In this document: positions 9,773-36,424 of the stretch, piece after piece
How the letters are laid out: each line of letters starts with the position of its first letter
How positions within the stretch are numbered: the stretch's first letter is position 1
IMG/VR virus record: IMGVR_UViG_3300020231_000201
Reading direction: 5' to 3' (one strand)
DNA length: 64,000 bases
From: an uncultured virus (IMG/VR IMGVR_UViG_3300020231_000201)
Taxonomy: Duplodnaviria; Heunggongvirae; Uroviricota; Caudoviricetes
Translations under genes and position numbers: made by a program
Notes under the pieces: generated by a model
The model's database searches: none
What the model was told of the DNA's origin: nothing
Seen by the model: the letters and a program-made list of their open reading frames with translations, nothing else

Positions 9773-10097
9773 CTAATTTCAAAGTAGTTTATGACTAACC
9801 TTTAGATCATCATACTCTCAACAATACAACTAAACAGTCAAAAAAATTCCATTTTATACTAGTATGGCATGGCATCAACCACTGTATATTATTGGCACAC
9901 AATAACTCCAGTGGATGCCATACTATTTTTGACAAAACAAAATATATCCATTTTACATTGTAGGGTTAAAGAGGCTCTTTTCTAAGAGCTTATCTTGTAG
10001 TCGTCTTTAAACCGCCAAATGACTTCGTGTACGTCTTCCCCTTGATAGTGTATGTCAAGGGGAGAAACTTTATTTCATAAGAAATTATAATTTCATG

Positions 10098-11010: not shown

Positions 11011-11937
11011 ATGAACCAGCGTGGTTTTAGGTTGCAAAGTCAGGAATATGCTAAAGTTATCGAAGATCCAAAATCACTGATTGATAATGTCTTAGAAAAA
11101 CATTACCAAACTCCACAAATCAAATCAAAAGAAATGTACGAAGATGTAATCAATTATGCAAATCGTCAAATGACTGAACATGATTATTTTAAAATGAAAG
11201 AAAAGTATGATGAAAAAGTTTTCTGGAATTTATTTTTTGAAGGATCAAAGGCTATGTGCGAATTGACAGAAAGATCATTCAAGGATGAAAGAGTTGAAAG
11301 AGAGATGATTAAAAAAGGAATCCATCCACTTTTAGTAAATGAAGAAGAAGCAAAATATTTCCACTCTAAAGAATTTGGAACTCATTCACCAGTAATTGCA
11401 ACACATCACATCAGAATTGGAACACCACATGGAATTTCAAGAACTGAACCTGGTTTGTTGTCAGATCTTTACAAGTGTGGATATCTGCAAGACCTTACGG
11501 TTGAAGCTCTTATCGCATATGCACTTGAAGAAAAAGGCAGAGTAATTAGAGTTGACACAGCAAAAAAAATGTGTAAGGAAATTAACAAACAACGTAGAGA
11601 TCAAGTAAGCAGTTTAGTTGATGGCAGAACAGGAGAAGATAAAATGACAAAGAAAGTTTTAGAAATTATTTCCAAGAAAGGAATGGCTGAACATTGGAGT
11701 TTTGAAAAGGTAAACAATTATGGAAATCAGGGAAGAAAAATGTGCAAACTTGTGCAAGACGACTTTGGGAAAGAAATAGGAAACATGATTGTAAAACAAA
11801 ATTCAGAAAATACTATTCAAACAGCAGAATTAGCTGTTAATCACATGGAACACATTTGTAAATCATTAGGTATCGCAGTTGATGATATGATTGCAGTTGC
11901 ATGGTATAAGATAATGGGTAGGAAAAAGAAAAAATAA
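11011..11937 (+). CDS. Hypothetical protein (308 aa), first gene of the basic-protein operon
   Basis: Long ORF; TAATG coupling to the next gene. Confidence 0.8.
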   Translation: MNQRGFRLQSQEYAKVIEDPKSLIDNVLEKHYQTPQIKSKEMYEDVINYANRQMTEHDYFKMKEKYDEKVFWNLFFEGSKAMCELTERSFKDERVEREMIKKGIHPLLVNEEEAKYFHSKEFGTHSPVIATHHIRIGTPHGISRTEPGLLSDLYKCGYLQDLTVEALIAYALEEKGRVIRVDTAKKMCKEINKQRRDQVSSLVDGRTGEDKMTKKVLEIISKKGMAEHWSFEKVNNYGNQGRKMCKLVQDDFGKEIGNMIVKQNSENTIQTAELAVNHMEHICKSLGIAVDDMIAVAWYKIMGRKKKK

Positions 11938-12248
11938 TGCCAGCTCCTTTTAGAACTAAATCACAACTCAAAGCTATTCATGCAAAGACCAATGCAATTA
12001 GATCAGGTGTAAGTAAAAGAGAATTATTTGAAGCTGATGTTCAACGCATAAAACTGGCAAGAGAGGAAGGTCGAGATGAAGGAGTTACACCACTGTTTGA
12101 TTTAGCAGCAAATCTCAGAAATATATCAGACGAAAGAGCTTTAGAGAAAGCAAGTGTAATAATAGCCTTACAAAGGGATAAGGAAGCAAGAGAATCTTTC
12201 ATTAAAGAAAACGCACTTCGTAGAAACCAACAAAGGAGTTTTACATAA
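11937..12248 (+). CDS. Basic protein with leader motif A (QLKAIHAK)
   Basis: MPAPFRTKSQLKAIHAK; shares GVSKRELFE and FIKENALRR with 13990. Confidence 0.8.
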   Translation: MPAPFRTKSQLKAIHAKTNAIRSGVSKRELFEADVQRIKLAREEGRDEGVTPLFDLAANLRNISDERALEKASVIIALQRDKEARESFIKENALRRNQQRSFT

Positions 12249-12682
12249 TGCCATTTGTTACACTTACCGACAAGAGAAGAATTTTTGTAAGAAACGCAAA
12301 GGAAGGAATTTCAGTTAGAGTACAAGACATTTACGGTCCTGAAATTGCTGCTGATCCCAAAGTTCAATCAGCAGGATCATTTGAACAAGCTCAAAGAATT
12401 GCAAGAGAACGAGTAACATCAAAGCACAGTGTTGGATTCATCAGTCCTCAAAAAGCAAAAGAGATTGGAGTAAAGGGCATGGAATTCAGAGAACGCCCAC
12501 CAAGTCCAGTTAATGTAAAGTTTTCAGATGAACTTTTCTTAAAGAATTTACAAGAAAAAGTAAAAATGGAAAAACAAGAAGAACTAACAAAAACTTCTAC
12601 TAACATAATTTCTGATAAGGCTTTGCTAAAAGCCGATGAATCTAAGGAAAAAATGCTTACAAAACAATTGAGGAATATCTGA
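12248..12682 (+). CDS. Protein with leader motif B (FVTLTDKRRIFV)
   Basis: Translationally coupled; beta-hairpin-like leader followed by GIS. Confidence 0.75.
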   Translation: MPFVTLTDKRRIFVRNAKEGISVRVQDIYGPEIAADPKVQSAGSFEQAQRIARERVTSKHSVGFISPQKAKEIGVKGMEFRERPPSPVNVKFSDELFLKNLQEKVKMEKQEELTKTSTNIISDKALLKADESKEKMLTKQLRNI

Positions 12683-12726
12683 TGTTTCTAGTCTTTACAA
12701 ATAAAATTTCAAGGAAGTGAGTCTTT

Positions 12727-13077
12727 TTAGCCAGAAAAAGATCAAAAGAGGAAGTTGCAGCAATTCAAGCTAAAAAAAATGTAACTGGATTAACATTTTC
12801 TGGACTTATAAAAACTGTTGAAGATAATGACAGAAGTAAAGACACACTCGATATTACTACAAATCAAGACAACTCATTAAAAGAATTCCCAAAAAAAGAA
12901 TTCAGGTTGTGGGTTGTAAAAGAACCAAATTCAAGTGAAAAACTTGGAGGTTCGGAAACAGTTGTTAGATCACAACATTATGGACAAGCAGTTGATGATT
13001 TCATTATTGATTGGAATAAAAGAAAAAGATTGAACAGAACAATCGGATATCCAGTAGTACAAGGGAACAAAATCTAA
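12727..13077 (+). CDS. Leader-motif-A protein lacking a canonical start codon (TTA); not in ORF track
   Basis: 116-codon open frame (L)ARKRSKEEVAAIQAKKN...GNKI, parallel to MARKLGKEEVAAIKA...GEKI; SD-like GGAAGTGA 6 nt upstream; TAATG coupling downstream. Confidence 0.65.
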   Translation, partial: LARKRSKEEVAAIQAKKNVTGLTFSGLIKTVEDNDRSKDTLDITTNQDNSLKEFPKKEFRLWVVKEPNSSEKLGGSETVVRSQHYGQAVDDFIIDWNKRKRLNRTIGYPVVQGNKI

Positions 13078-13316
13078 TGGCACGAAAATTAGGAAAAGAA
13101 GAAGTCGCTGCAATTAAAGCTGGTCGAAATTTTCAGTTTGGTGTTAAAGGATTTAGTAGACATGATAAACCTGAACCTGAAATTGTGAGTGGTAGAGGAA
13201 TGTCTAGTCTAGGAGAACCATTCACTGTAAAAGAACAAAAAAGAATTAAACAAGAAGCATTATTTAACGCACAACTATCGGGAAAGAGAAAAGAACTAAC
13301 GGGGGAGAAAATCTAA
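13077..13316 (+). CDS. Basic protein with leader motif A (EVAAIKA)
   Basis: Shares SGRGMSSLGEPFTVK with 16133. Confidence 0.8.
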   Translation: MARKLGKEEVAAIKAGRNFQFGVKGFSRHDKPEPEIVSGRGMSSLGEPFTVKEQKRIKQEALFNAQLSGKRKELTGEKI

Positions 13317-13673
13317 TTGGGGCTATTCAGTAAGAGAACACCAAAACAGGTTGCTGCAATCAAAGCTAAGGAGAGATTCAAACTAAGAGCAGGAATACTT
13401 GGAGATGAAAAGAAGGCCGTCAAAGAAAATAGATTAACAATTGAAAGTCAAATTAAGAGAAATAATAGAGGAGATCTTTCTCCACAAGAACAAGCAGTAA
13501 TTGTAACTGCTAACCGTTCATCAAAAATTGAGAAGGGAGATCTATCCGAATTACCAAGAGGAAATAGGAATGAACAAACTGCACTTGTTTTGGATAAACA
13601 AAGAGATAAGCTACTCAAAGAAGAACAAGAAATTGACTTTAGGAAAGACAAATTGGAGGTTCAAGCGAAATGA
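13317..13673 (+). CDS. Basic protein with leader motif A (QVAAIKAK)
   Basis: MGLFSKRTPKQVAAIKAK. Confidence 0.8.
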   Translation: MGLFSKRTPKQVAAIKAKERFKLRAGILGDEKKAVKENRLTIESQIKRNNRGDLSPQEQAVIVTANRSSKIEKGDLSELPRGNRNEQTALVLDKQRDKLLKEEQEIDFRKDKLEVQAK

Positions 13674-13990
13674 TTGATAATGAAAAATCAAGAAAAAAAT
13701 TCTTCGCAACATTAAACAAATCAAACAAATCAATCAGTATCAAATCACTTGAAATGGTTGAAGTTTTGAATAAAGGAAGTTTGGCAAAAGGAATCGATCC
13801 TTCCGAATTTAACATTGAACGACTAAAAGGAACAGATGATTTAGTTGTACGAGAAAAAGGTCAACAACACGGAGTCATTACAACGGCAGATGATCTTGAT
13901 CGTGTGTTAATACACCTTGAACAGCAAAAAAAGGCTCGACTAATTCAAGAAGCCCCACAAAAATCTAAGCAGAAGGGGTTGCAACTTTAA
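13670..13990 (+). CDS. Protein with divergent leader motif A (SRKKFFAT)
   Basis: Coupled ORF within the array. Confidence 0.7.
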   Translation: MIDNEKSRKKFFATLNKSNKSISIKSLEMVEVLNKGSLAKGIDPSEFNIERLKGTDDLVVREKGQQHGVITTADDLDRVLIHLEQQKKARLIQEAPQKSKQKGLQL

Positions 13991-14382
13991 TGGTTAAATT
14001 TTTTATAGACAGTAAGGGGAGAGTACGAAAAATTAATGATAATGATCTGGAAATTTTCAAACAAATGAAAGGAATAACTATGGAATTAGAAGTGAATAGA
14101 GCAAAACGAGCTGGAGTTTCAAAAAGAGAATTATTTGAAAGAGATATTTTTGATAGAAAATTAGGTAGCCTGTCTTCATCAGACAGAGAAATCGTTATGA
14201 CAGGAATTGGATCGGGCAGAATTCAGATTGGAGATATTGTTGAAGGTGCAACAAAGAAAAATGTTACAAGTGCAAAAGCTTTGGATGATGCTTTGGAAAA
14301 CATCAGCGCAGCAAGAGCTCTTAGATTAAATCCTGAAGCCAAAAGACAATTCATCAAAGAAAACGCACTAAGGAGAACTTAG
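13990..14382 (+). CDS. Protein with leader motif B (FFIDSKGRVRKI)
   Basis: Paralogous blocks shared with 11937. Confidence 0.8.
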   Translation: MVKFFIDSKGRVRKINDNDLEIFKQMKGITMELEVNRAKRAGVSKRELFERDIFDRKLGSLSSSDREIVMTGIGSGRIQIGDIVEGATKKNVTSAKALDDALENISAARALRLNPEAKRQFIKENALRRT

Positions 14383-14383
14383 T

Positions 14384-14857
14384 ATGGCACTTACTAAAGA
14401 ACAACTACGAGCTATTCATGCAAAGAAAGGTTCTAGCGGAATTTCATCTCGATCTCACAAGACTGGTAATAAACAAATTACGATAAAGACTAAGCCAAAG
14501 AAAGCCCAAGTAAGAATTCCAAAAATTGTAATTCCTAAAGGCGATATCAGATCTCATCTTACCGAAGAAGAAATTGGCGAATGGGAAAAAGCAGCCGGTT
14601 CAGAATTAATTAGTGCAGAAACAGGAAGATTTGAAGGAAGAAACACTGTTGAAGTAAAATTCCAAAACGGAGAAGAATGGTTTGAGTTCCAAACAATGAA
14701 GGAACAAAATGATTGGTTTTCAAATTACTATAATGGATTAGATATTCCAAAAGTAAAAGAGGGTAAATTTGTTGAACTAGATCATCCAAAAATTGAGGGC
14801 TACGTTACTTTAATGTCAGGACTTTCATTGTTCAAGGACAGGTTGATGGAAAAATGA
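14384..14857 (+). CDS. Protein with leader motif A (QLRAIHAK) and acidic C-terminal domain
   Basis: MALTKEQLRAIHAKKGSSGISS. Confidence 0.8.
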   Translation: MALTKEQLRAIHAKKGSSGISSRSHKTGNKQITIKTKPKKAQVRIPKIVIPKGDIRSHLTEEEIGEWEKAAGSELISAETGRFEGRNTVEVKFQNGEEWFEFQTMKEQNDWFSNYYNGLDIPKVKEGKFVELDHPKIEGYVTLMSGLSLFKDRLMEK

Positions 14858-15264
14858 CTAAGAAACTTTCTAGAAAACAAATGAGAGCTATTCATGCTAA
14901 AAATTATGTAGGAATTGTAGTTATTAGGAAAGGAAAAACTCGAAACGCAGATACTTTTGTTAATGATAAACCAATGACTTCAACACAAGCATTTCATTCC
15001 GCAGCAGTAAAAAGTTCTATTGAACTTATGAAGCCTAAATACAAAATTGGTTCAAAGAGATTTGCATTAGCAATAAAGAAAAAAGATCTAAACGACTTTG
15101 TAGAAAAACAGAAAGTTCCAAAGAAAAATCCAGGTCCATTCCTAATAGCTGAAAAGACAAGAGGAGGAAATGAAAAATTAATAGCTAGATTAGGACCAAA
15201 AGGCGAGACACCTGAAGTAATTATAGGAGAACGAAAATTTTTGGAGAATAAAACCCCATTTTAA
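14854..15264 (+). CDS. Basic protein with leader motif A (QMRAIHAK)
   Basis: MTKKLSRKQMRAIHAK. Confidence 0.8.
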   Translation: MTKKLSRKQMRAIHAKNYVGIVVIRKGKTRNADTFVNDKPMTSTQAFHSAAVKSSIELMKPKYKIGSKRFALAIKKKDLNDFVEKQKVPKKNPGPFLIAEKTRGGNEKLIARLGPKGETPEVIIGERKFLENKTPF

Positions 15265-15274
15265 AGTGATAGTA

Positions 15275-15505
15275 ATGGTTCATAAAAGATCAAAAGCACA
15301 AAACAGAGCTATACACGCTAAGAAAGGCGGTGGTATTTCTTCAACACAACTTACAGCATATGATGTTGCAGCCAAGAAAAAAGTTCACATCTTAAAACCA
15401 ATGGCTGTTAAGTTGAAAAACGGAACATGGGCAATTAAAGGAAAGAGTTCTGCAACTGGAAACACTGTCTTTAGACTTGTCGGCAAGACAAAACCGACAA
15501 TCTAA
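15275..15505 (+). CDS. Leader-motif-A protein with DUF5679-like small beta domain
   Basis: QNRAIHAKKGGGISS then AYDVAAKKK...MAVKLKNGTWAIKGKSSATGNTVFR, DUF5679-like but without cysteines (track start 15266). Confidence 0.7.
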   Translation: MVHKRSKAQNRAIHAKKGGGISSTQLTAYDVAAKKKVHILKPMAVKLKNGTWAIKGKSSATGNTVFRLVGKTKPTI

Positions 15506-15517
15506 TTTTTTTGCTAA

Positions 15518-16132
15518 ATGGCTAATCTAACTCCAGAGCAATTGGCAGCGATGTTCTCAAAGGAGGAGATCAGTAGAGGAATCTCATCAAGTGATATTTC
15601 ATTAAGATTAAAAGAATTTGGAATTAAAAGAGAGAAACGATTAACTCCACAGGAAGAATTCAAACAAAGAGATGTTTTAGTTATTCCTGAAAGACGACAA
15701 AGAATAGAAATATCTCAAAGTGTAAGAGATAAATTTTTGCCACCTACAATGAAAGAAATTACAAGAGAAGGAAAAATAATTACAGTTCGCAAAAGAAAAT
15801 TCGGACCACTTGATCCTGATCTGGAAGCTAGTGAAGCACAAAAAGAAGCTTTGTTGAATATAACTGGAAGATCCCAAAGTCAAACAACAAGGGGAGAAGC
15901 AGCAGCACAATTCAATGTTCTCAATAGACAAAGATCAATGGATCTTGTAACAGCAATACAAGGGCAACATTCAACAGATCCAGAAGTACAAAGATTGGTT
16001 GGAGGTTTAACTCCAGAACAAAGAGCTCAAGCAAATGAGATTCTCGAAAGAATAGCTAACAAAAAAGCTGTTTCGTCACCATTAATGTTACCTTTCCGTG
16101 ATGTGAAAAACGTATTGAAGATGGTGAAATAA
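15518..16132 (+). CDS. Protein with leader motif A (QLAAMFSK)
   Basis: MANLTPEQLAAMFSKEEISRGISS. Confidence 0.8.
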   Translation: MANLTPEQLAAMFSKEEISRGISSSDISLRLKEFGIKREKRLTPQEEFKQRDVLVIPERRQRIEISQSVRDKFLPPTMKEITREGKIITVRKRKFGPLDPDLEASEAQKEALLNITGRSQSQTTRGEAAAQFNVLNRQRSMDLVTAIQGQHSTDPEVQRLVGGLTPEQRAQANEILERIANKKAVSSPLMLPFRDVKNVLKMVK

Positions 16133-26960: not shown

Positions 26961-27423
26961 ACGATGTATCTTTAAAGATCCAGATGAATCCCTTGCAGGT
27001 ATTCTAACTTATGAAAGAACTTTATCAGTCACAGTTTACAGAACTTCATTTACAGTATATTCTTGCATGGGAAGTAGACACCACGAATCACATCTAATTA
27101 GAATTGAATATGGTCAAGTTATGAAAAATGATTCAAAGAAGCCAAAACTAATTGCAAAACAAACAAATCCGATCCCATTAGAAAAACGAGCAAGATTATT
27201 TGGTAAAGACATCATGTATTGCCCAATTGGTAAATGTAAATTGAAACATCAGAAAATTCTTACGGAAGATCTGAATGATATCAGTCAAGATATTTACAGA
27301 TGCCCTGGTTCAGTAAAGGCAAATCATCATGGTCATTACATGAAAGTATGTCATGGCTTTTTACAAGGAAACTTTCCTGAATCACAAAAAGTAGGTATTC
27401 TAATTATAACAATAGAAAAATGA
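26947..27423 (+). CDS. Cys/His-rich hypothetical protein
   Basis: 158-aa ORF overlapping the upstream stop. Confidence 0.6.
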   Translation: MTVIRRCIFKDPDESLAGILTYERTLSVTVYRTSFTVYSCMGSRHHESHLIRIEYGQVMKNDSKKPKLIAKQTNPIPLEKRARLFGKDIMYCPIGKCKLKHQKILTEDLNDISQDIYRCPGSVKANHHGHYMKVCHGFLQGNFPESQKVGILIITIEK

Positions 27424-27452
27424 TTTAACGTCCTATGCGCACATAAGACGAT

Positions 27453-27509
27453 TTAATAGGATCTCTTTTTAGAAGATTTTTTCTTGGCTTTAGATTTTTT
27501 CTTAGCCAA
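27453..27509 (-). CDS. 18-aa Lys/Ser-rich peptide (not in ORF track)
   Basis: TTG start, MAKKKSKAKKKSSKKRSY, 6 nt downstream of the 38-aa basic peptide. Confidence 0.45.
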   Translation of the reverse strand: MAKKKSKAKKKSSKKRSY

Positions 27510-27515
27510 TTTTAT

Positions 27516-27632
27516 CTATCTTCGTTTTCTTTTTTTAGCAGCCTTCTTTCCAGCTTTACTTCTCTTAGCAGTATTTCGCTTTCGAGTTCTTGCAGCCTTT
27601 TTTCCAGCAGCCCTTTTTTTTGCACTAACCAT
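27516..27632 (-). CDS. 38-aa protamine/histone-H1-like basic peptide (not in ORF track)
   Basis: MVSAKKRAAGKKAARTRKRNTAKRSKAGKKAAKKRKRR. Confidence 0.7.
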   Translation of the reverse strand: MVSAKKRAAGKKAARTRKRNTAKRSKAGKKAAKKRKRR

Positions 27633-27847
27633 TGATTCTTCACTAGATAATTGATTTAAGTAACTTACAAGTTCACAAAATTACAGTAAAGGATCAAAGG
27701 TTGATTACTGCAATTGGTTGCCTTCATCTGCTAGAGGTATAGCAACCAACAGTCAAGTTACCCACACGACAGGAATTCACCAAAATTCCTATTCCTGTCA
27801 TTAATTTTGACAGAAATTTTTATCAATGATTCATTCTTTACTAACTT

Positions 27848-28024
27848 ATGGTCACAAAGGCCCAATTGAGAGCTATCCATGCAAATAAAAAACGCAAGTT
27901 CACTGTTAGTGGAGAAAAACTAATTCTAAGAATCAAGGAACAGAATAAAAACAAACCAAAATCAAAACAAGTGAATCCATTTGCATTGGCAACTGCAAAA
28001 GGTTATCGATTAAAGGGCAACTGA
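27848..28024 (+). CDS. 58-aa basic protein with leader motif A (not in ORF track)
   Basis: MVTKAQLRAIHANKKRK...VNPFALATAKGYRLKGN; TTTATCAAT about 20 nt upstream. Confidence 0.75.
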   Translation: MVTKAQLRAIHANKKRKFTVSGEKLILRIKEQNKNKPKSKQVNPFALATAKGYRLKGN

Positions 28025-28090
28025 CAATAAACATGGTCCACCGTTATCAGTACGGATAACTGCAATTTTCAGATCTCCAGGTGTTTGGTC

Positions 28091-28168
28091 CAACATCACC
28101 CCCCTAAGTTTCATGCAACTACACCCCCCCAAGTTTCGTGCAACTACACCCCCCCAAATTTCGTTCAA
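28091..28168. repeat. 25-bp tandem repeat x3 with oligo-C core (iteron-like)
   Basis: caacatcacccccctaagtttcatg / caactacacccccccaagtttcgtg / caactacacccccccaaatttcgtt. Confidence 0.9.
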
Positions 28169-28284
28169 GTTTAAGGCGATTTCATGCCTGTTTTAGCCTT
28201 AATTTTAGTTCACTTCCTGACACGCTTAGGCTTCCTTTTACGGTTCTCTATGTGTTCTTTTTAGCGATTTTTAATCATCTCTCA

Positions 28285-28330
28285 ACCAGCTCTTAACCAG
28301 CTCTCAAAACCAGCTCCCTATGCTAGCTCC
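28285..28330. repeat. Short direct repeats aaccagctc x3 plus a variant
   Basis: aaccagctcttaaccagctctcaaaaccagctccctatgctagctc. Confidence 0.8.
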
Positions 28331-28394
28331 CTCCTGACTTTTTCAACGGGTTGAAACGCTGGTGTTAAATATCTTGGGAGATTAACTACTGGCA

Positions 28395-28829
28395 TTGACT
28401 TCTCACAAATCAGCTATCCATAGCGATAGCCATGAAGGGTTATTCACTACTCCTGACAGCTCTCAAGAGGCTAGTCAAAAATGTGATACCAAATTGCAAA
28501 CTGATCAAGCACACAAGCAAGTCTTTGATAAGAAAAAAAACAGATTAGTTTGGAAAGAAGAAAAATTTGTTGCAATCTTTCCTGTTGATTCAGGAAGGGG
28601 AATGTCCAATTTAAATTCAAATTGGAATATTAGCAACGAACCTTTATTCAAGAAAATTGTTTCAGAAGATTCTGCAACTGGCGACAGAATAGAATTTAGG
28701 AACAAAGGAACTAAACTCAAATACAGAAAAACATTTGAGCAAGACGGTTCACTAAGAAAATCTCACAAATTGAATCACAATCATTTTGTGTTAATACGCA
28801 ACTTCAAGAAAAAGGAGAGTAAGAATTGA
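28395..28829 (+). CDS. Hypothetical protein, first gene of the putative early region
   Basis: 144-aa ORF, TTG start. Confidence 0.65.
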   Translation: MTSHKSAIHSDSHEGLFTTPDSSQEASQKCDTKLQTDQAHKQVFDKKKNRLVWKEEKFVAIFPVDSGRGMSNLNSNWNISNEPLFKKIVSEDSATGDRIEFRNKGTKLKYRKTFEQDGSLRKSHKLNHNHFVLIRNFKKKESKN

Positions 28830-29194
28830 TAGACACTCTTACATCTACAATAGCAAGAATCCCTGAAACATTTATCGGGAATAACAAAAAAGCAAAACTT
28901 AGAAAATCGAAAAAGACAAAGGAAATTTCAGCACAACTAGGAAGGGGAAAATCTGCAATCCTCGAAGCAAAACCAAATCTTAGAAAATCAATCATAAAAA
29001 CCCAAAAGGTAAAACCTAAGAAAGCATGGTTTCAACAACTCCGTATAATCTATGCAATAGATTTTGCAATCTACGGAAACAAACTTCATGCACTAGAAGT
29101 TTCAAAATGCTATCGACATTCATTCGAACTTGCGAAAGCAAAAATCACACAATTAGAGAAAACGCAAAAACTCAAGGCGGTAGTTACAAATTGA
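28826..29194 (+). CDS. Basic hypothetical protein
   Basis: AAGGAG RBS; overlapping TTGA junction. Confidence 0.65.
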   Translation: MIDTLTSTIARIPETFIGNNKKAKLRKSKKTKEISAQLGRGKSAILEAKPNLRKSIIKTQKVKPKKAWFQQLRIIYAIDFAIYGNKLHALEVSKCYRHSFELAKAKITQLEKTQKLKAVVTN

Positions 29195-29425
29195 GTAGCC
29201 AACAAATGATTGAAGCAAGAGCATTACAAATCAAGATACAGCGAGTTCATAAGAGAGCTCACGAAATAGCTTGCAAATATGTTATTGCAGAATTAGGTCG
29301 AGGAATGAACAATATCAAGCAATAGATGAAAGTTTCATTCGATATTGAAACAGGAACAAGAAAATGTCAATTCTGCAATCGTTCAATCGGCATGGGCGAA
29401 TTTTGTAGAAATTGCATTGAGTGAA

Positions 29426-29461
29426 GTTGACAGGAATTTCAGTTAATTCTGGATTCCCAAC
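29426..29461 (+). repeat. 36-nt hairpin repeat, copy 1
   Basis: GTTGACAGGAATTTCAGTTAATTCTGGATTCCCAAC. Confidence 0.95.
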
Positions 29462-29593
29462 TTTTGAACATTCGGGAGAACCGTTATTGAACAAAGCTTA
29501 TTTCAGAAAATCTATGTATTTCAGAAAATGGTAGTGGGTATGCAGTTTGAACAGTAATTGTTCAATCCCTACTACCATACAAAAAACAATGAA

Positions 29594-29629
29594 GTTGAAA
29601 GGAGTTTCAGTTAATTCTGGATTCCCAAC
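29594..29629 (+). repeat. 36-nt hairpin repeat, copy 2
   Basis: GTTGAAAGGAGTTTCAGTTAATTCTGGATTCCCAAC. Confidence 0.95.
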
Positions 29630-29751
29630 TTTTTAGATAGAGAACGGTAAAAGTGCGATATTTTATTACTTTGAGAAATTCATTTCTACATTGTAATCCA
29701 TATTGCCACCAAACTCTATCTAGTCAAAATGGAAATTAGGAGATAATAAAA

Positions 29752-29943
29752 TTGTCTACACAAGTATATGTTATAAAAAACCCAAAAGCCCCACGTTCAT
29801 TTGCACAAGTAAAATGTATTTTTGCAATCGGAAAGGCATTAAATTATAGCGAAGAAAAAATCAGAGCTTTACAAAAGAAAGCAGTAACAAAAGGTCAAGC
29901 ATCAGCTATGATCAAACAGTTGAAAAAAGTTCAATCAATTTAA
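29752..29943 (+). CDS. Small basic protein
   Basis: AGGAGA RBS; SFAQVKCI...TKGQASAMIKQL resembles small helical phage domains. Confidence 0.65.
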   Translation: MSTQVYVIKNPKAPRSFAQVKCIFAIGKALNYSEEKIRALQKKAVTKGQASAMIKQLKKVQSI

Positions 29944-29946
29944 GAA

Positions 29947-29982
29947 GTTGACAGGAAATTCTGTTAATTCAGTTTTCCCAAC
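29947..29982 (+). repeat. 36-nt hairpin repeat, copy 3 (compensatory substitutions)
   Basis: GTTGACAGGAAATTCTGTTAATTCAGTTTTCCCAAC. Confidence 0.9.
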
Positions 29983-30071
29983 ATTCTAAAAAAAAGCAGA
30001 ACTATGAAGCCGAAGCTAATGCAGAAGCTAATGATTAATTCTGTCAAAAATGGAAAAGGAGAATAAAAATT

Positions 30072-30350
30072 ATGGCAAATTTTGAAAGTAAGAACGGCAA
30101 GCTCTTTATTGATGGAAAAAAAGTTCTCAAAGGCTGGGAATCATTTTCAGGTTGGTATTGGTTTGCAACAGAAAAAGTCCAAGTTCAAGAAGATGAATTT
30201 TCTGATCATGATCAAATATGGTTTGGTTTTGTTCAAGGACTTGAAGAAGAATGGGGAGATTTCGCACAAGCCGAAATTGAAGCATTAGGAAAAAATAAGG
30301 TATGGGAAATCCCAGCTAAGAACTTATCATTTAGTGGTAGACGAAATTGA
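30072..30350 (+). CDS. DUF2958-like protein
   Basis: GWYWFATE...WFGFVQGLEEEWGDF...EIEAL. Confidence 0.7.
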   Translation: MANFESKNGKLFIDGKKVLKGWESFSGWYWFATEKVQVQEDEFSDHDQIWFGFVQGLEEEWGDFAQAEIEALGKNKVWEIPAKNLSFSGRRN

Positions 30351-30745
30351 TGTTCAATATATTCAATCGAAAATCAGATCACGAAAAGAATCTTTACATT
30401 TTAGAAAATACACATGACGGAAATGAGTTAGCTCCATGCCACCTTAGTTTAGTTGAAGGTTCATCAAATCACAACTTGAGTAAAAAAGGCAGAAAAGCAT
30501 TAACTGATCTTTACAAAAGTGTAATTTCAGGATATACAAAACCATTCTATCACGGTGTTGAAAATATGACACAAGACCTTGAAGGCTATATCTATTGGAA
30601 AGAAATCAGAATTGAGCATTATAGTTTTGACGAATATGAAGAAGCTGATATTGCAATTAAAAAACTGGAAAGTGAATGTAAAACAATAGAATCAAAAGGA
30701 CTTGAAGTAACAAGCCTAAGATTATCTGCATTGTGGAGTAAATAG
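30347..30745 (+). CDS. Hypothetical phage protein
   Basis: 132-aa coupled ORF. Confidence 0.7.
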   Translation: MMFNIFNRKSDHEKNLYILENTHDGNELAPCHLSLVEGSSNHNLSKKGRKALTDLYKSVISGYTKPFYHGVENMTQDLEGYIYWKEIRIEHYSFDEYEEADIAIKKLESECKTIESKGLEVTSLRLSALWSK

Positions 30746-31473
30746 ATAATTGACACAAATGAAAAACGTAAAAGGCGATCATTTATGTCCGATCTGTAAA
30801 CTGGGAAAAGAATACAACACAACTACCTGTAATAGTATTATGACACATGGTTCAAAATGGAATGTATAGATGAATAAAAATCCTCATGTAGCATATAGTC
30901 AATATATAGAATTATTAAAAATGATACCAATACAGGATCTTGAATTAGCATTAATAACACAACAAGAAAAACAAGCTAAAGCAGAATATCAAATTCAATT
31001 TTTATCTGAAGAACTTGAAAGAAGGGATTTAAAATGAAAAACAGTCTAAGAGATTTAGAATTAATTGATTTAGATAAATTCTATTCTGAAATCAACAAAG
31101 TGTTTAGTCCTGATGAAGCGAATAAAATCGCTAAAGTAATTCATAGTTGTTATGAAAATTGAATTTCCACGAAGTAGTTGAGATGTGGACAAATAAAACA
31201 AAAGATGAAATTTGTTATAATTGTTCATTCAGTTTTAAAAACGGCTTATGCCCATGCAGAATTACTCACATAAATCAACATTGTGAAAATTATTGGAAAA
31301 CAGGGAATTTTGAAATTTGAGTCAAATTCCAAAAGAAAGTCTAAGAGATTGGATAGTTGAAGATCTTCAGAATGTTTTTAGCAAATTTTTTGATGATAGA
31401 TATTCAATATTTGATGATTTAGAAATATTGGATCATATCGCAGATAATATTAAATCATTATTAAAAAAACGAA

Positions 31474-31509
31474 GTTGACAGGAATTTCAGTTAATTCTGG
31501 ATTCCCAAC
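31474..31509 (+). repeat. 36-nt hairpin repeat, copy 4
   Basis: Identical to copy 1. Confidence 0.95.
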
Positions 31510-31547
31510 ATTCAAAAAAAATGGAAAATTTTAGGAGATAAAAAATT

Positions 31548-32018
31548 ATGCCTGAAACGATTGAAAAAATAGTCTTACAAAAGACTACTAATACAAAACT
31601 CATCAAGTTTGGCGTATTTCGTTCTGAAAATGGAATTGAAATTATTGCAGAATCAAAACCATTTGAAAATTTCTTTAAACGAAATAAACTAAACACAGAT
31701 GAAGTAAAGTGGGAAGGAACACAACCATATAATTATCCAAATGGTCTTGACGACAATACTGTCGCACTATTACATTATTGGAAAAAAGGTTTGTTTACTG
31801 ACCGAGAACATACCAAACCAAATCTCTCATTTTTAAGAGCAAAGGGATTAGGAACTGGAAAAACATTTGTTATTACAGATTCGATTTATTCTAAAACTGA
31901 AATTGCAAGATTCACAAAAAATGCAAGAGAAGAAATCAAAAAATTCTTCGATCAGTTTATGAAACCTGTTAATGTTTCAGTAGAAATCGTTTTTACGATT
32001 AATGACGATACGGAGTAA
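31548..32018 (+). CDS. Hypothetical protein upstream of amidoligase
   Basis: 156 aa; AGGAGA RBS. Confidence 0.75.
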   Translation: MPETIEKIVLQKTTNTKLIKFGVFRSENGIEIIAESKPFENFFKRNKLNTDEVKWEGTQPYNYPNGLDDNTVALLHYWKKGLFTDREHTKPNLSFLRAKGLGTGKTFVITDSIYSKTEIARFTKNAREEIKKFFDQFMKPVNVSVEIVFTINDDTE

Positions 32019-32021
32019 AAT

Positions 32022-32900
32022 TTGTCACAGCATAAATTATTGTTAGGACATCTTTCACAAAGCAAAACTCCTGTATCACTAGACAATATAATGGAGTTTG
32101 TTGAAACTTGGGAAGCAATAATACCAAGATCAACAATTCGTGCAAGACTAGCTGAATTAAGATTAAAGGATCAGATTTTTCAAAATCCAGATAGTCATTT
32201 ATTTTCAATTAAAACAAGAGAACAATTAGAAACACAATTTGCAGGAAGCATACAATGTGTAAATCTAGTTGGGATAGAATTAGAAGGCGGTTGGGATAAT
32301 AGACCGCATAATTTTCATGGCGATCCTTCTGTAAGTTGCTCAGGAGCTATTGTTGGAGAAACAATTAGTGATCCAATGAAATTATCAGAAGCAATAGCAT
32401 GGACAACTAAAAACTATCCAGATTACTCAAATCGAAGCTGTGGAATTCACGTTCATCTTAGTTTCTCAAATAGACTTGCATATATGCAAATGCTAGACAA
32501 GAAATTTTATGAACAAGTATTTTTACCACAAGCAGAAATTTGGGGCAAAAATAATAAAGTTAGAGAAGGTTCTGCATTTTGGGATCGATTAAGTGGAAAT
32601 AATAGATTTTGCTTAAAAGGTTTTGAAGGCGAGAAACAAGCAAAACTTAGTTCAAAAAATGGAATAAGATATAGACATCTAAACTATTGTTGGAATCTTC
32701 ACAATACGTTAGAGTGTAGATTATTCCCATGCTTTCAAGCTAAAGAAAAGGGAGTTCCGAAATTAGCTCATAACGCAATTAAGTTCTTTTATCATCTTGC
32801 AAATAATTATTTGAAGGCACAAAAAGCTGAACCAAGAGTGGTTGAAGAAATCACAGTTGATGTTCAAGACGAATCACAGGAAACTAAGATATGTGTGTAA
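32022..32900 (+). CDS. Putative amidoligase (COOH-NH2 ligase, Amidoligase_2-like) with N-terminal HTH-like extension
   Basis: GIELEG, DPSV, ETIS, SCGIHVHLS, RYRHLN, TLECRLF. Confidence 0.8.
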   Translation: MSQHKLLLGHLSQSKTPVSLDNIMEFVETWEAIIPRSTIRARLAELRLKDQIFQNPDSHLFSIKTREQLETQFAGSIQCVNLVGIELEGGWDNRPHNFHGDPSVSCSGAIVGETISDPMKLSEAIAWTTKNYPDYSNRSCGIHVHLSFSNRLAYMQMLDKKFYEQVFLPQAEIWGKNNKVREGSAFWDRLSGNNRFCLKGFEGEKQAKLSSKNGIRYRHLNYCWNLHNTLECRLFPCFQAKEKGVPKLAHNAIKFFYHLANNYLKAQKAEPRVVEEITVDVQDESQETKICV

Positions 32901-33718
32901 TAATTAATTGTGTAAATGAATTCCCAAGTTTAGCAACATTAGAAAGTGCAGAACAAATGAATCCGCATGGAGCTGGTGTAGCTTGGGTAGAAAATGGTAA
33001 AGTAAAATACAAAAAAGGAATTGATTTAGATGCTAAGAAAATTTTTGAAATGACAAAGACATTACCGCTTCCAGCGATAATACATTTCAGAATTGCAAGT
33101 ATAGGAAAAATAATTCCTGAATTGTGCCACCCATTTCCAATTAACGAAAATGCCGATCTAACACTAGAAGGAATTTCAGATTCAGTTCTGTTTCATAATG
33201 GAACTTGGTCAGATTGGAAAAAAGCCATTGAAGATTCAATAAGTAAAAAGCAAATACCATTTTCACTTGCTAACCAAGAATGGTCAGATTCAAGAAGTAT
33301 GGCTTGGTTAGCTGATAAATTTGGAGTAGATATTTTGAAAAGAATTCCATTAGGAAATAAAATTTCTGTATTAACTCCAAAAGGAATTATAACATTTGGG
33401 AAATTTGTTAGTGTAGGTAAATTTTCATGCAGTAATGATTACTTTACGCCAGCTACATGGGATCTTGAAAATGTAAATTATTACCCACACAATAGAGTTC
33501 CAGTAAAATCAAAATCAAAATTAAATTCAAAGCAGAAAAAGAAATTAAAAAAGAGATACGAAAAATCAATTCAGCAACAAATTGATAAAGATGAATCATA
33601 CACGATTTCAAACGAAGATGATGATTACAACAAAGCCAAAGAAGAACTGTATGATGATATGAGCATAGTTGCAAAACAGTATTTCGATAAGAATATCGAT
33701 AATGGAAATAGGAGATAA
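32891..33718 (+). CDS. Class II (Ntn) glutamine amidotransferase
   Basis: N-terminal nucleophile MC, NPHGAG, HFRIAS, CHPF, LFHNG, SDS. Confidence 0.85.
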   Translation: MCVIINCVNEFPSLATLESAEQMNPHGAGVAWVENGKVKYKKGIDLDAKKIFEMTKTLPLPAIIHFRIASIGKIIPELCHPFPINENADLTLEGISDSVLFHNGTWSDWKKAIEDSISKKQIPFSLANQEWSDSRSMAWLADKFGVDILKRIPLGNKISVLTPKGIITFGKFVSVGKFSCSNDYFTPATWDLENVNYYPHNRVPVKSKSKLNSKQKKKLKKRYEKSIQQQIDKDESYTISNEDDDYNKAKEELYDDMSIVAKQYFDKNIDNGNRR

Positions 33719-34689: not shown

Positions 34690-34842
34690 TGTATTTTAAC
34701 ACATTATGTTTAACAATAATCTCAATGATAATTGGCGGATCTGCAAAGGTCTATGCTATGGGATTAATATTTCAGTAGGCATGAAATGTTTAAATAAATT
34801 ATCAATAAATAAAAAAATGGAATTACTAGGAGGTAATTGAAT

Positions 34843-35586
34843 ATGAAAGCGTATAGAAATGTAGAAATAATTTCTGGCAAAAATGCAATACCTGTAAAGG
34901 TTTGTGGTATGACAGAAAAAGAACAAAGTATTTTCAGCAATACTTGTCCTCATTGTGAGGGTTCAGTAGGATATGAAAACAAATGTCAAGGCGAATGTGG
35001 AAAAATTATCCCTTATGCAGAAATAGCTAAAGGATATACCACAATGAAAGATGGCGTAGAACAAAAAATTCTGTTCAAAAAAGAACAGATTGACCAACTA
35101 AAATCACTCGAACAACAAATCAAAGTGATCGGTTCAATGCCATACGATCAAATTGACATCAGAACAATAGGAGAAGGTTACTACATCTTACCTAGAAAGT
35201 TAGAACCAAAAAAGAAAAACTCTCCAGATTCAAAACAACCTTATTGTGCATTAGTAAAAGGTTTAGAACAAACTGGAAAAGTTCTTCAAATCAAATACAC
35301 ACTTTCAGGAAAAGAAAAACTAGGAATCTTAACCGCACAAAACGGTTTAATCATTCTCAAGAATGTTGTCTATGATGAACAACTAAGAGAATGTGACGAA
35401 GAACCAACTGTAACATTAAAACCAGCAGAAATAAAGTCGGCAAAAAACTTCATTGACGCACTAAAACAAACTGATCTCACAAAAGTAGAGAACGAGTATT
35501 CAACTGCGATTGAAGAATTGCTAGCTGGAAAAGTTCCAGAAATTGTTACTGCAAGACAATCAGCAGGAATGGATTTCTTCGAGTAA
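34843..35586 (+). CDS. ku: Prokaryotic-type Ku DNA end-binding protein
   Basis: AYRNVEIISGKNAIPVKV...CPHCEGSVGYENKC...IPYAEIAKGY...GYYILP...PYCALVKGL parallels bacterial Ku (GLVNIPVKLY...IVKGYE...YYL.P...Y.LL..AL). GGAGG RBS; track start 34837. Confidence 0.85.
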   Translation: MKAYRNVEIISGKNAIPVKVCGMTEKEQSIFSNTCPHCEGSVGYENKCQGECGKIIPYAEIAKGYTTMKDGVEQKILFKKEQIDQLKSLEQQIKVIGSMPYDQIDIRTIGEGYYILPRKLEPKKKNSPDSKQPYCALVKGLEQTGKVLQIKYTLSGKEKLGILTAQNGLIILKNVVYDEQLRECDEEPTVTLKPAEIKSAKNFIDALKQTDLTKVENEYSTAIEELLAGKVPEIVTARQSAGMDFFE

Positions 35587-35593
35587 CTAAAAA

Positions 35594-36424
35594 TTGGTTA
35601 AAGTAGCAAAGCCTGAAAAAGATGGCAAGATACAAACCAATGAAGTTGATAAGTTACTTGGAAAAAAGTTCGCTGATTATATTGCAGAACCAAAACTAGA
35701 TGGCGAAAGATGTCTAGTTCAAAAAGAAAACGATAAGATCACACTAGTTCGAGAAAACGGTAATGTGAAAAACTCACACTATCCAGAACTAGTGGATTTT
35801 TTTTCTAACCTAAACTTACCAAATAAAACAATCATAGATGGTGAAGTTGTTGTTTTGAAAAATGATTTTCATGCAAACTTTAACCAACTTTTGAATAGAC
35901 AAACAACTGGATCATTAAGACAGAAACTTCTCTTACAGCAACTACCTGTTACATTCATGGGTTTTGATATTCTCAAGTATGATGGGGAAGATTTGACAAG
36001 AGAATCTTTTGAATACAGGCGATCTATTCTTGAAAAAACAGGAGCTAGAGTAATGCCTCAATTCAATCCAAAGGAAATACACCCATTAATTGACAAATAT
36101 GAAATGGAAGGCGTAGTAGTAAAACTGAAAACTGCAAAATATTATGACGATAAGGCACAGATAAAACTGAAGGCTTGGGAAGAAGATGATTTCAAAGTCA
36201 CAGGATTCGATACATCTGAAAGTAGATTGATCTCGGCATTACATATTGAAACATTTGATGGCGTTGATGCAGGTAAAGTAAACTATACTGGCTATTCAGA
36301 TACAGAAGAATGGGCTAAAAAAGTTGTAGGAATGATAGCGGTAGTTCGTTATTTGAAATACACAGATAACACAGGTAACAAAAAGAAATTCCCTGTGTTA
36401 AAGGAATTACGGGAGAAAAAATAA
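35594..36424 (+). CDS. lig: Minimal ATP-dependent DNA ligase (adenylation + OB domain)
   Basis: Motif I EPKLDGER, III IIDGEVV, IIIa FMGFDIL, IV EGVVVK, V IKLK. Confidence 0.92.
   Translation: MVKVAKPEKDGKIQTNEVDKLLGKKFADYIAEPKLDGERCLVQKENDKITLVRENGNVKNSHYPELVDFFSNLNLPNKTIIDGEVVVLKNDFHANFNQLLNRQTTGSLRQKLLLQQLPVTFMGFDILKYDGEDLTRESFEYRRSILEKTGARVMPQFNPKEIHPLIDKYEMEGVVVKLKTAKYYDDKAQIKLKAWEEDDFKVTGFDTSESRLISALHIETFDGVDAGKVNYTGYSDTEEWAKKVVGMIAVVRYLKYTDNTGNKKKFPVLKELREKK

Follow-up and report, generated by a model that had tools for sequence, protein, structure and literature searches.

The locus and its repeated hairpin

The window analysed here is a 64,000-nucleotide (nt) stretch of DNA, the first 64 kb of the 98,301-bp contig SMUY01108570.1, held in IMG/VR as an uncultured Caudoviricetes virus (IMGVR_UViG_3300020231_000201). 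The open reading frame (ORF) and protein family results given below cover this window. Between positions 29426 and 31509 it carries four copies of a 36-nt bulged hairpin, set among small rightward genes and short non-coding segments, which we call cargo. An initial annotation, made from the letters alone, had described the copies as lying between early genes and had proposed that they act at the RNA level. The features of the locus are as follows.

29329 to 29424, plus strand: cysteine-rich ORF of 31 amino acids (aa), terminating 1 nt ahead of copy 1
29426 to 29461, plus strand: repeat hairpin copy 1, beginning 1 nt past the stop codon of that small ORF; U4 follows
29528 to 29578, plus strand: non-coding cargo hairpin between copies 1 and 2, folding z-score (z) −4.16
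29594 to 29629, plus strand: repeat hairpin copy 2, with an AAA bulge and a single G.U pair; U5 follows
29633 to 29723, plus strand: non-coding cargo hairpin that follows copy 2 and precedes the ribosome-binding site (RBS) of gene A, z −4.24
29752 to 29943, plus strand: gene A, 63 aa, without a family, with a hairpin on each side in the window and in two related contigs (L005, L006)
29947 to 29982, plus strand: repeat hairpin copy 3, with two compensatory swaps and a G-to-U change in the internal loop; another fold is predicted in context
29996 to 30044, plus strand: kink-turn-shaped hairpin just 5' of an RBS, with tandem GA at 30006 and 30033, a 3-nt bulge and an AGC/GCU stem
30047 to 30062, plus strand: leader motif AAAATGGAAA with an AGGAGA RBS, also present at about 29726-29743, at 31518-31538 and before 33710
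30072 to 31478, plus strand: block of seven short ORFs that overlap, reaching from copy 3 to copy 4; related strains skip two of them
31474 to 31509, plus strand: repeat hairpin copy 4, identical to copy 1 and holding the stop codon of ORF 31317-31478; the next RBS is 23 nt on

The copies start at 29426, 29594, 29947 and 31474, each directly preceded by GAA, and the start positions place them 132, 317 and 1491 nt apart, as the initial annotation had stated (with about 1490 for the last). Over the 36 positions copy 4 has no mismatch to copy 1, copy 2 has two and copy 3 has five. The changes singled out at the outset, namely the two double swaps of copy 3 and an A-to-G change in copy 2 that is tolerated as G.U on the plus strand only, were confirmed. 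A fifth copy was not found in the window, where the closest other 36-mer, both strands considered, differs at 13 positions, and an unfiltered covariance-model scan of the window scored the four copies, which belong to the training set, at 73.8–79.4 bits and the next match at 14.5. Rfam returned no gathering-score match in the window and five sub-threshold matches across six loci, and ARAGORN found no tRNA in the window.

In copy 1 a 4-bp helix is followed by an ACA bulge, a 5-bp helix, a UU/G internal loop, a 3-bp helix and a UUAAUU loop. This fold, as first proposed, is the minimum free energy (MFE) structure of copy 3 in its own 60-nt segment, whereas the MFE structures of copies 1, 2 and 4 in their own segments gain a U.G pair within the internal loop. 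In context, copy 3 is predicted to prefer another fold. The stem mostly continues past GUUG/CAAC by 1–5 weak pairs, directly or across a 1-nt bulge, so that 36 nt marks no sharp boundary. Window copies folded singly give z of −1.65 to −2.57 on the plus strand and −0.28 to −1.29 on the minus strand. They are thus only modestly better than shuffles, and the case for the hairpin depends on repetition and covariation. A separate dyad in the window shares a short string with the repeat: within a strong fold at 27755-27850 (z −3.1 on plus, −3.3 on minus), 5' of the leftward gene 27516-27632, the perfect dyad CTGTCA-N7-TGACAG at 27795-27813 has a spacer whose first six bases equal the repeat's loop, and may be an operator or leader.

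Covariation in related contigs

A metagenome scan recovered the source contig and five short related contigs (L004-L008) that hold ten more copies. The resulting alignment has 14 rows, some of them orthologous; three rows, L006c, L007a and L008a, represent one locus at an assembly branch, which leaves 12 distinct loci. On the structure first proposed, pairing is kept in 167/168 pair cells, with both-sided changes at four pairs. None of 500 shuffles, a control that ignores relatedness, matched the paired fraction or the covariation score, and slid controls gave 20–58%. All four combinations of the two inner swaps are present among the rows, and in L005b two pairs of the outer 4-bp helix are altered together, from GTTG/CAAC to ATCG/CGAT. 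Every row keeps the succession of a 4-bp helix, a 3-nt bulge that begins with A and a 5-bp helix, and the internal loop differs in length and sequence. With helix, bulge and helix fixed and the internal loop free to vary, it is shape rather than sequence that is kept in the part that a tRNA-splicing endonuclease (EndA) reads. RNA energies favour the plus strand in 14/14 rows, compared with 3/14 under DNA parameters. The relatives thus support the earlier claim that selection acts on a plus-strand RNA structure, and judged by this comparison of sequences the repeat is a real, structure-selected element.

The strand preference also bears on a single-stranded DNA hairpin for genome entry, replication or a virion polymerase, a role to which a long non-coding stretch with tandem repeats about 1 kb away (about 28030-28390) would lend some colour. 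The DNA folds are weak (−3.4 to −7.0 kcal/mol) and show no plus-strand preference, and a site after stop codons and before RBSs points to RNA, so this role seems very improbable. An integron attC site was rejected. Such sites carry RYYYAAC followed by GTTRRRY and have a cognate integrase; here the two motifs stand in the opposite order on either strand, L005b lacks GTT and there is no integrase family match among the 140 window ORFs scanned.

The altered ends of L005b also matter for the suggestion of the initial annotation that the element mimics a CRISPR repeat, as an RNA anti-CRISPR (Racr), and for a reading as a mini-array. The 36-nt length and GTTG/CAAC ends do recall such repeats, and 9-nt end matches exist to one published type VI-B and one type VI-I repeat (17/36 and 20/36 positions by eye). 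The intervals of 132–1491 nt are irregular with genes inside, the ends read ATCG/CGAT in a relative, and Rfam has no match. A motif search of supplement files of PMC10651486 (9) and PMC13187072 (12), covering the first two places per motif, found one of six motifs, within an unrelated II-B repeat. In its available text the Racr study reports candidates for every type but VI, and the thaumarchaeal systems in the available text of PMC6563490 are type I-B. No matching array was found among 185,579 species genomes. The mimic idea is therefore not supported, and we give it scarcely any credence. Two neighbouring candidates were also dismissed: a CRISPR array, given the irregular gaps and the lack of a Cas family among 140 window ORFs, and a Racr or solitary repeat unit, there being four copies and no close CRISPR repeat match in the material compared.

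Wider searches returned little. Three DNA patterns were run against IMG/VR; two gave no match and the third gave three incomplete ones on unrelated contigs. At the protein level, too, IMG/VR yielded no close relative. The covariance model found no convincing copy among 40 distant amidoligase loci. Phage records left the amidoligase of the downstream module (described below) unmatched and matched the repeat only by chance, over 17–28 nt. A lone match among the 185,579 species genomes was dropped, as it lay in a Bacteroidota contig without similarity to the window.

Position of the hairpin relative to genes

The hairpin lies within −5 to +15 nt of a stop codon in 12/14 rows (counting ORFs of at least 25 aa, three of which run from a contig edge), and in the remaining two it comes after non-coding cargo. 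In the window copies 1, 3 and 4 adjoin stops as had been noted, copy 1 beginning 1 nt and copy 3 beginning 3 nt after a stop and copy 4 containing one. The next gene begins as little as 12–24 nt after the hairpin, with no promoter motif between.

This position would suit a partial terminator or 3'-end stabiliser, at which transcripts end or to which they are trimmed so as to shield the upstream mRNA from the exosome. A run of 4–6 U follows in 6/14 rows, and the stem-loops called PeSLs in T4-type phages work as terminators according to the available text of PMC2839356. Three U or fewer follow in 8/14 rows, however, with none in four, and a terminator scan calls none of the four window copies; genes lie close downstream without an intervening promoter motif, and a fixed 3-nt bulge would presumably not be needed. 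We regard a terminator or stabiliser as improbable. A plain intrinsic terminator is not supported, as U4 or longer follows in only 6/14 rows and the scan is negative for the window copies.

Cargo RNAs and exchange of modules

Between hairpins lie structured non-coding segments. The 60-nt window at 29521 is the second most structured of the 64 kb after composition correction, and the cargo at 29633-29723 ranks 4 of 179 local structures with z < −3 in the 64 kb. In a non-overlapping 100-nt z scan, by comparison, the window cargo was absent from the top 20, and the hairpin region is not enriched in strong local folds (3 against 1.9 expected). The relatives carry different hairpins in equivalent places, with z of −1.55 to −4.94 over six segments. 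L007 and L008 are identical for 123 nt through the hairpin's end, continue into unrelated cargo and rejoin at a second conserved element; the cargo thus varies from the 3' end of the repeat onwards.

The exchangeable non-coding modules are candidate viral small RNAs. Searches of the window found no target or source for the cargo RNAs beyond short matches (best E about 0.02 among the matches listed). Readings as H/ACA or TIGR RNAs were rejected by the usual criteria for these classes, since there is no kink-loop, no two-sided pocket, no regular period and no Nop-domain match. A likeness between the second window cargo and the L008 cargo, seen by eye, was discarded after alignment folding recovered no pairs. 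Two cargoes in the relatives have features of their own: in L007, at about 138-268 of the reverse strand, the post-hairpin cargo consists of a 57-nt hairpin unit duplicated in tandem, and in L006 the cargo at 1396-1516 has a 9-bp closing stem whose strands are box C-like and box D-like. The latter resembles a C/D-box small RNA, with no C/D match in Rfam.

Gene order around the hairpins also varies across L004-L008, and the gene preceding copy 4 is skipped in X2, X3 and X7. In X7 the contig joint 29313-31467 has a short side of just 30 letters, which fits a deletion and a variant neighbour alike. Hairpin-free junctions change as well: 31032-31154 is skipped in 3/4 runs and 159 letters are added at 30746 in 2/4, so that shuffling does not need the repeat. 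Recombination may be what exchanges the modules.

The shared 123 nt of L007 and L008 and the shifting gene order are what a DNA-level cassette linker would predict, that is, a promoter and/or recombination joint like the T4-type PeSLs or the repeats of halovirus HF2, with the fold secondary. Set against this, the repeat lacks a TATA-like motif and sigma-70-like sites occur at chance (16 against 17.5 expected), genes are gained and lost at hairpin-free junctions too, no integrase or HUH family occurs among the 140 window ORFs, and homologous recombination should exert no selection for base-pair compensation. Such a linker is in our judgement decidedly improbable. A promoter repeat was rejected, with no TATA-like match in any window copy and no sigma-70-like site at the copies. 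Repeated TATA-type motifs do occur in distant viruses with the same downstream module, in three of six loci examined (L015, L024 and L043), where dense, partly bidirectional TATA-type repeats lie 5' of the amidoligase module (L015 4356-11285, L024 12-306, L043 4518-4673).

A kink-turn-shaped leader

A canonical stem, a 3-nt bulge, tandem G.A/A.G pairs and a non-canonical stem are found shortly 5' of an RBS in the window, L005, L007 and L008. A reversed, C/D-box-like form closes the first L006 cargo, and a second L006 element is a variant with AA replacing one GA. The pattern is permissive, with 17 matches in the window on both strands (16 besides the leader element), so it is conservation that speaks for a kink-turn. 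The elements give no MFE signal (z about 0 in 4/4), as expected for non-canonical pairs. By analogy with archaeal kink-turns the leader may bind L7Ae. The leader motif AAAATGGAAA accompanies 4/37 RBS sites, all within 29.7–33.7 kb. Beyond the paired stem, TGTCAA (30039-30045; L005-L008) stands at the 3' end of the kink-turn elements and of the first L006 cargo; it is the reverse complement of the starts of copies 1, 3 and 4, and no covariation supports a pairing between them. The kink-turn-shaped leader and the exchange of cargo between strains are absent from the initial annotation and are new here.

Surrounding genes, promoter and probable host

Two further features frame the hairpin region.

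28365 to 28371, plus strand: TATA-like site TTAAATA, with no other in the non-coding DNA ahead of the hairpins; a candidate single promoter
31548 to 33718, plus strand: downstream module of ORFs, one of 156 aa, one amidoligase-like and one bearing class II glutamine amidotransferase-like motifs

The Pfam scan took in 140 ORFs (57 plus 83, the latter being 80 of 96 listed and three added), and the 16 outside it are mostly opposite-strand or overlapping frames. The window encodes PCNA, Ku, ATP-dependent ligase, methyltransferases, a HerA-like ATPase and ParB-like proteins; among the 140 ORFs there is no Cas, integrase, HUH, RNA polymerase, RNA-processing nuclease or Nop-domain family, and no capsid gene was identified in the window. 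In the downstream module PF12224 is matched by 8/17 aligned homologues of the amidoligase-like ORF and not by the window protein, and the last ORF, which has no family match, we take from its motifs to be class II glutamine amidotransferase-like. An amidoligase of 60% identity (P0092) is encoded on a contig of 116 kb. Searches of a protein atlas and of representative sequences name neither gene A nor ORF 28826, giving only leads below 0.9 for the two candidates.

The named relatives of PCNA are Nitrososphaerota and a Nitrosopumilus spindle-shaped virus at about 36% identity. These relatives suggest a virus or virus-like element of Nitrososphaerota, with ammonia-oxidising archaea the probable host. 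The sequence is present in marine or marine-sediment DNA runs from four studies.

A non-coding stretch of about 360 nt (about 28030-28390), with tandem repeats at 28083-28316, is followed by the TATA-like site and then by rightward small genes. A pattern scan of 27400-32100 found six TATA-like sites on the plus strand, the other five within ORFs or at ORF junctions. The label of an early region, also used by the initial annotation, is a presumption from this gene content and position. The repeats at 28083-28316, of 25 nt and 11 nt in tandem, may mark an origin or genome-end region.

A proposed RNA boundary signal read by a protein

With promoter, plain terminator and CRISPR roles unsupported, the reading left is that a protein recognises the RNA by its shape. 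We propose that a single long rightward transcript would start, probably near 28365-28395, and that in it the hairpin, placed either between non-coding modules or immediately past a stop codon, would fold and be recognised by shape. Cleavage of the hairpin by a nuclease, among the roles that the initial annotation had considered, would then yield individual mRNAs along with short structured RNAs whose ends are protected. The enzyme would most likely be the relaxed (alpha-beta)2 splicing endonuclease of the host, acting on the 3-nt bulge beside the 4-bp helix, and another host or viral nuclease would be the alternative. Being near-identical, the copies may double as crossover points at which the following module is exchanged.

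Several features agree with such cutting. The EndA motif is a central 4-bp helix with 3-nt bulges, as given in the available text of PMC6379350 and PMC7714728, and TACK archaea mainly carry relaxed EndA, according to that of PMC7714728. Beyond tRNA, EndA is described in the available sources as cleaving mRNA in two known cases, cbf5 (introns of 16–44 nt) and the 5' untranslated region (UTR) of Haloferax HVO_1309, and as cutting rRNA stems in most archaea. In our alignment all rows (14/14) have the 4-bp helix, the inner helix and, on the 3' side of the former, a 3-nt bulge, which together correspond to one half of this motif, and the bulge is predicted to be unpaired at 37 °C (0.75 or more at all three bases) in 13/14, window copy 3 being the exception. 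The ends left by an EndA cut are a 5'-OH and a cyclic phosphate, which would protect the products.

A number of observations weigh against this proposal. The one-bulge geometry holds throughout, but the canonical two-bulge test fails in 11/14 rows: a second bulge is closed by at least two Watson-Crick pairs in 3/14, via A-U pairs of the U run only, and in 11/14 two or all three of the bases that follow the helix are predicted to be mostly paired at 37 °C, so that the second cut site would be largely closed. The pairs closing the region 3' of the central helix are weak terminal A-U or G.U pairs that vary between copies. One-bulge geometry occurs at 48 window sites on both strands, 12 of which are the MFE of their own segment, four of these being the repeats. 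With 80-nt flanks the helix probability of copy 3 is 0.13 at 37 °C and 0.39 at 15 °C, and its favoured fold in context is predicted to pair with the RBS. The UUAAUU loop and GGA/UCC are invariant in 14/14 rows, and an enzyme reading shape alone would not need them; their constancy is compatible with a protein-binding site or with homogenisation among copies. The covariation comes from few events in related sequences, whose relatedness the shuffle control ignores, and the identity of the host hangs on a single 36% match. Given the mostly missing second bulge, the bases predicted to be paired, the common geometry and the alternative fold predicted for copy 3, we consider a T7-style boundary signal cut by a nuclease plausible, if a little short of probable, and EndA as the cutting enzyme possible and doubtful. 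The full scenario, in which the early transcript of an archaeal virus is cleaved by the host tRNA-splicing endonuclease wherever the bulged hairpin recurs, freeing mRNAs and strain-variable small RNAs, some of which would capture L7Ae via kink-turns, is somewhat more doubtful still.

The invariant loop and core and the mostly closed second cut site would also fit an RNA site that is bound and left uncut. A viral or host protein would sit on the loop and bulge, permitting antitermination via U-rich stretches or controlling translation or stability of the next module. Small basic proteins without a family are encoded nearby (28826-29194; gene A), and the alternative fold of copy 3 would mask the RBS. 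On the other side, no RNA-binding or antitermination Pfam family occurs among the 140 ORFs, the two candidates giving only the weak leads mentioned above, and four copies per 2 kb exceed what one loading site should need. We think such a site unlikely, and to about the same degree as the full EndA scenario.

Comparison with known systems

As a boundary signal cut by a nuclease, the hairpin finds its closest functional parallel in the T7 early region, where imperfect hairpins lie between the genes of one polycistronic early transcript (available text of PMC4858673 and PMC1540722). Loops or bulges in T7 RNase III sites can confine cleavage to a single strand and let a hairpin remain that shields the 3' end, as partial sources describe, and a minimal substrate of 34 nt exists (available text of PMC1540722). 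The duplex here has 12 core pairs plus up to five, interrupted by a 3-nt bulge. The T7 sites, however, need bacterial RNase III and typically span about two helical turns, whereas the host here is likely archaeal; the window copies are near-identical repeats with non-coding modules between them; and cutting, demonstrated for T7, is a supposition here.

EndA substrates outside tRNA (the cbf5 intron, the HVO_1309 5' UTR, relaxed HBh'/BHL forms) share the 4-bp helix, the 3'-side 3-nt bulge and the inner helix, and a two-site cut here would free about 32 nt, inside the 16–44 nt of cbf5. They differ in that the second bulge or loop is here mostly absent or predicted to be paired, and in that the present element is repeated, intergenic and viral. 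Kink-turns bound by L7Ae in archaeal 5' UTRs and C/D box small RNAs resemble the leader in the 3-nt bulge, tandem G.A pairs, box C/D-like strands and proximity to an RBS (available text of PMC5539422), whereas the leader is viral, has its RBS 12–20 nt outside the hairpin and is a presumed binder.

In placement the repeat follows a stop codon and precedes an RBS, within a variable region whose modules are exchanged where the repeat stands. It thereby resembles the PeSLs of T4-type RB49 and phi1, repeated stem-loops between stop and RBS with strain-specific neighbours. According to the available text of PMC2839356, a genome has about 50 PeSLs, which combine a sigma-70 promoter with a terminator stem. 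The window repeat has no promoter motif, four copies, a fixed bulged covarying shape and RNA cargo. The class I repeats of halovirus HF2 are likewise intergenic among the early genes of an archaeal virus; in the available text of PMC8707807 they are TATA promoters, without wording on stem-loops or hairpins, in contrast to the TATA-less hairpin here. By these analogies the hairpin most likely works like T7 RNase III sites and sits like PeSLs or HF2 repeats. It belongs to none of these groups nor to the EndA substrates, having no promoter, no RNase III evidence and no complete bulge-helix-bulge.

Other observations in the window

Small basic proteins with a 'QL(K/R)AIHA(K/N)'-like motif (repeat family D3) are encoded at 11937-16132, 27516-27632 and 27848-28024, together with a 38-aa lysine/arginine-rich protein; the cluster proteins have no Pfam match and may condense DNA. 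The most stable local RNA fold of the window (z −6.7) is non-coding, at 9837-9934, 5' of a leftward GP88-family gene. Genes for Ku and ATP-dependent ligase adjoin at 34837-36424, an end-joining-like pair in a probable archaeal virus.

Significance

Repeated linkers in viral variable regions are already known. Exact-word searches of the open literature turned up no account of a hairpin like this one, no virus-encoded EndA substrate and no kink-turn RNA from an archaeal virus, nor did they bring to light a promoter-less RNA linker whose RNA modules are exchangeable. RNA processing by archaeal viruses is largely unstudied, and the hairpin is short, varies in nature by compensatory changes and lends itself to an in vitro test with a single enzyme and an RNA of 60 nt. 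Were it a mere linker or stabiliser, it would be one more punctuation of viral gene cassettes and far less important. The non-coding modules could act on probable ammonia-oxidising archaea of marine sediment, and if the EndA reading is true, the locus would be a Cas-less repeat-and-cargo array of small RNAs, an archaeal counterpart of T7 RNase III processing.

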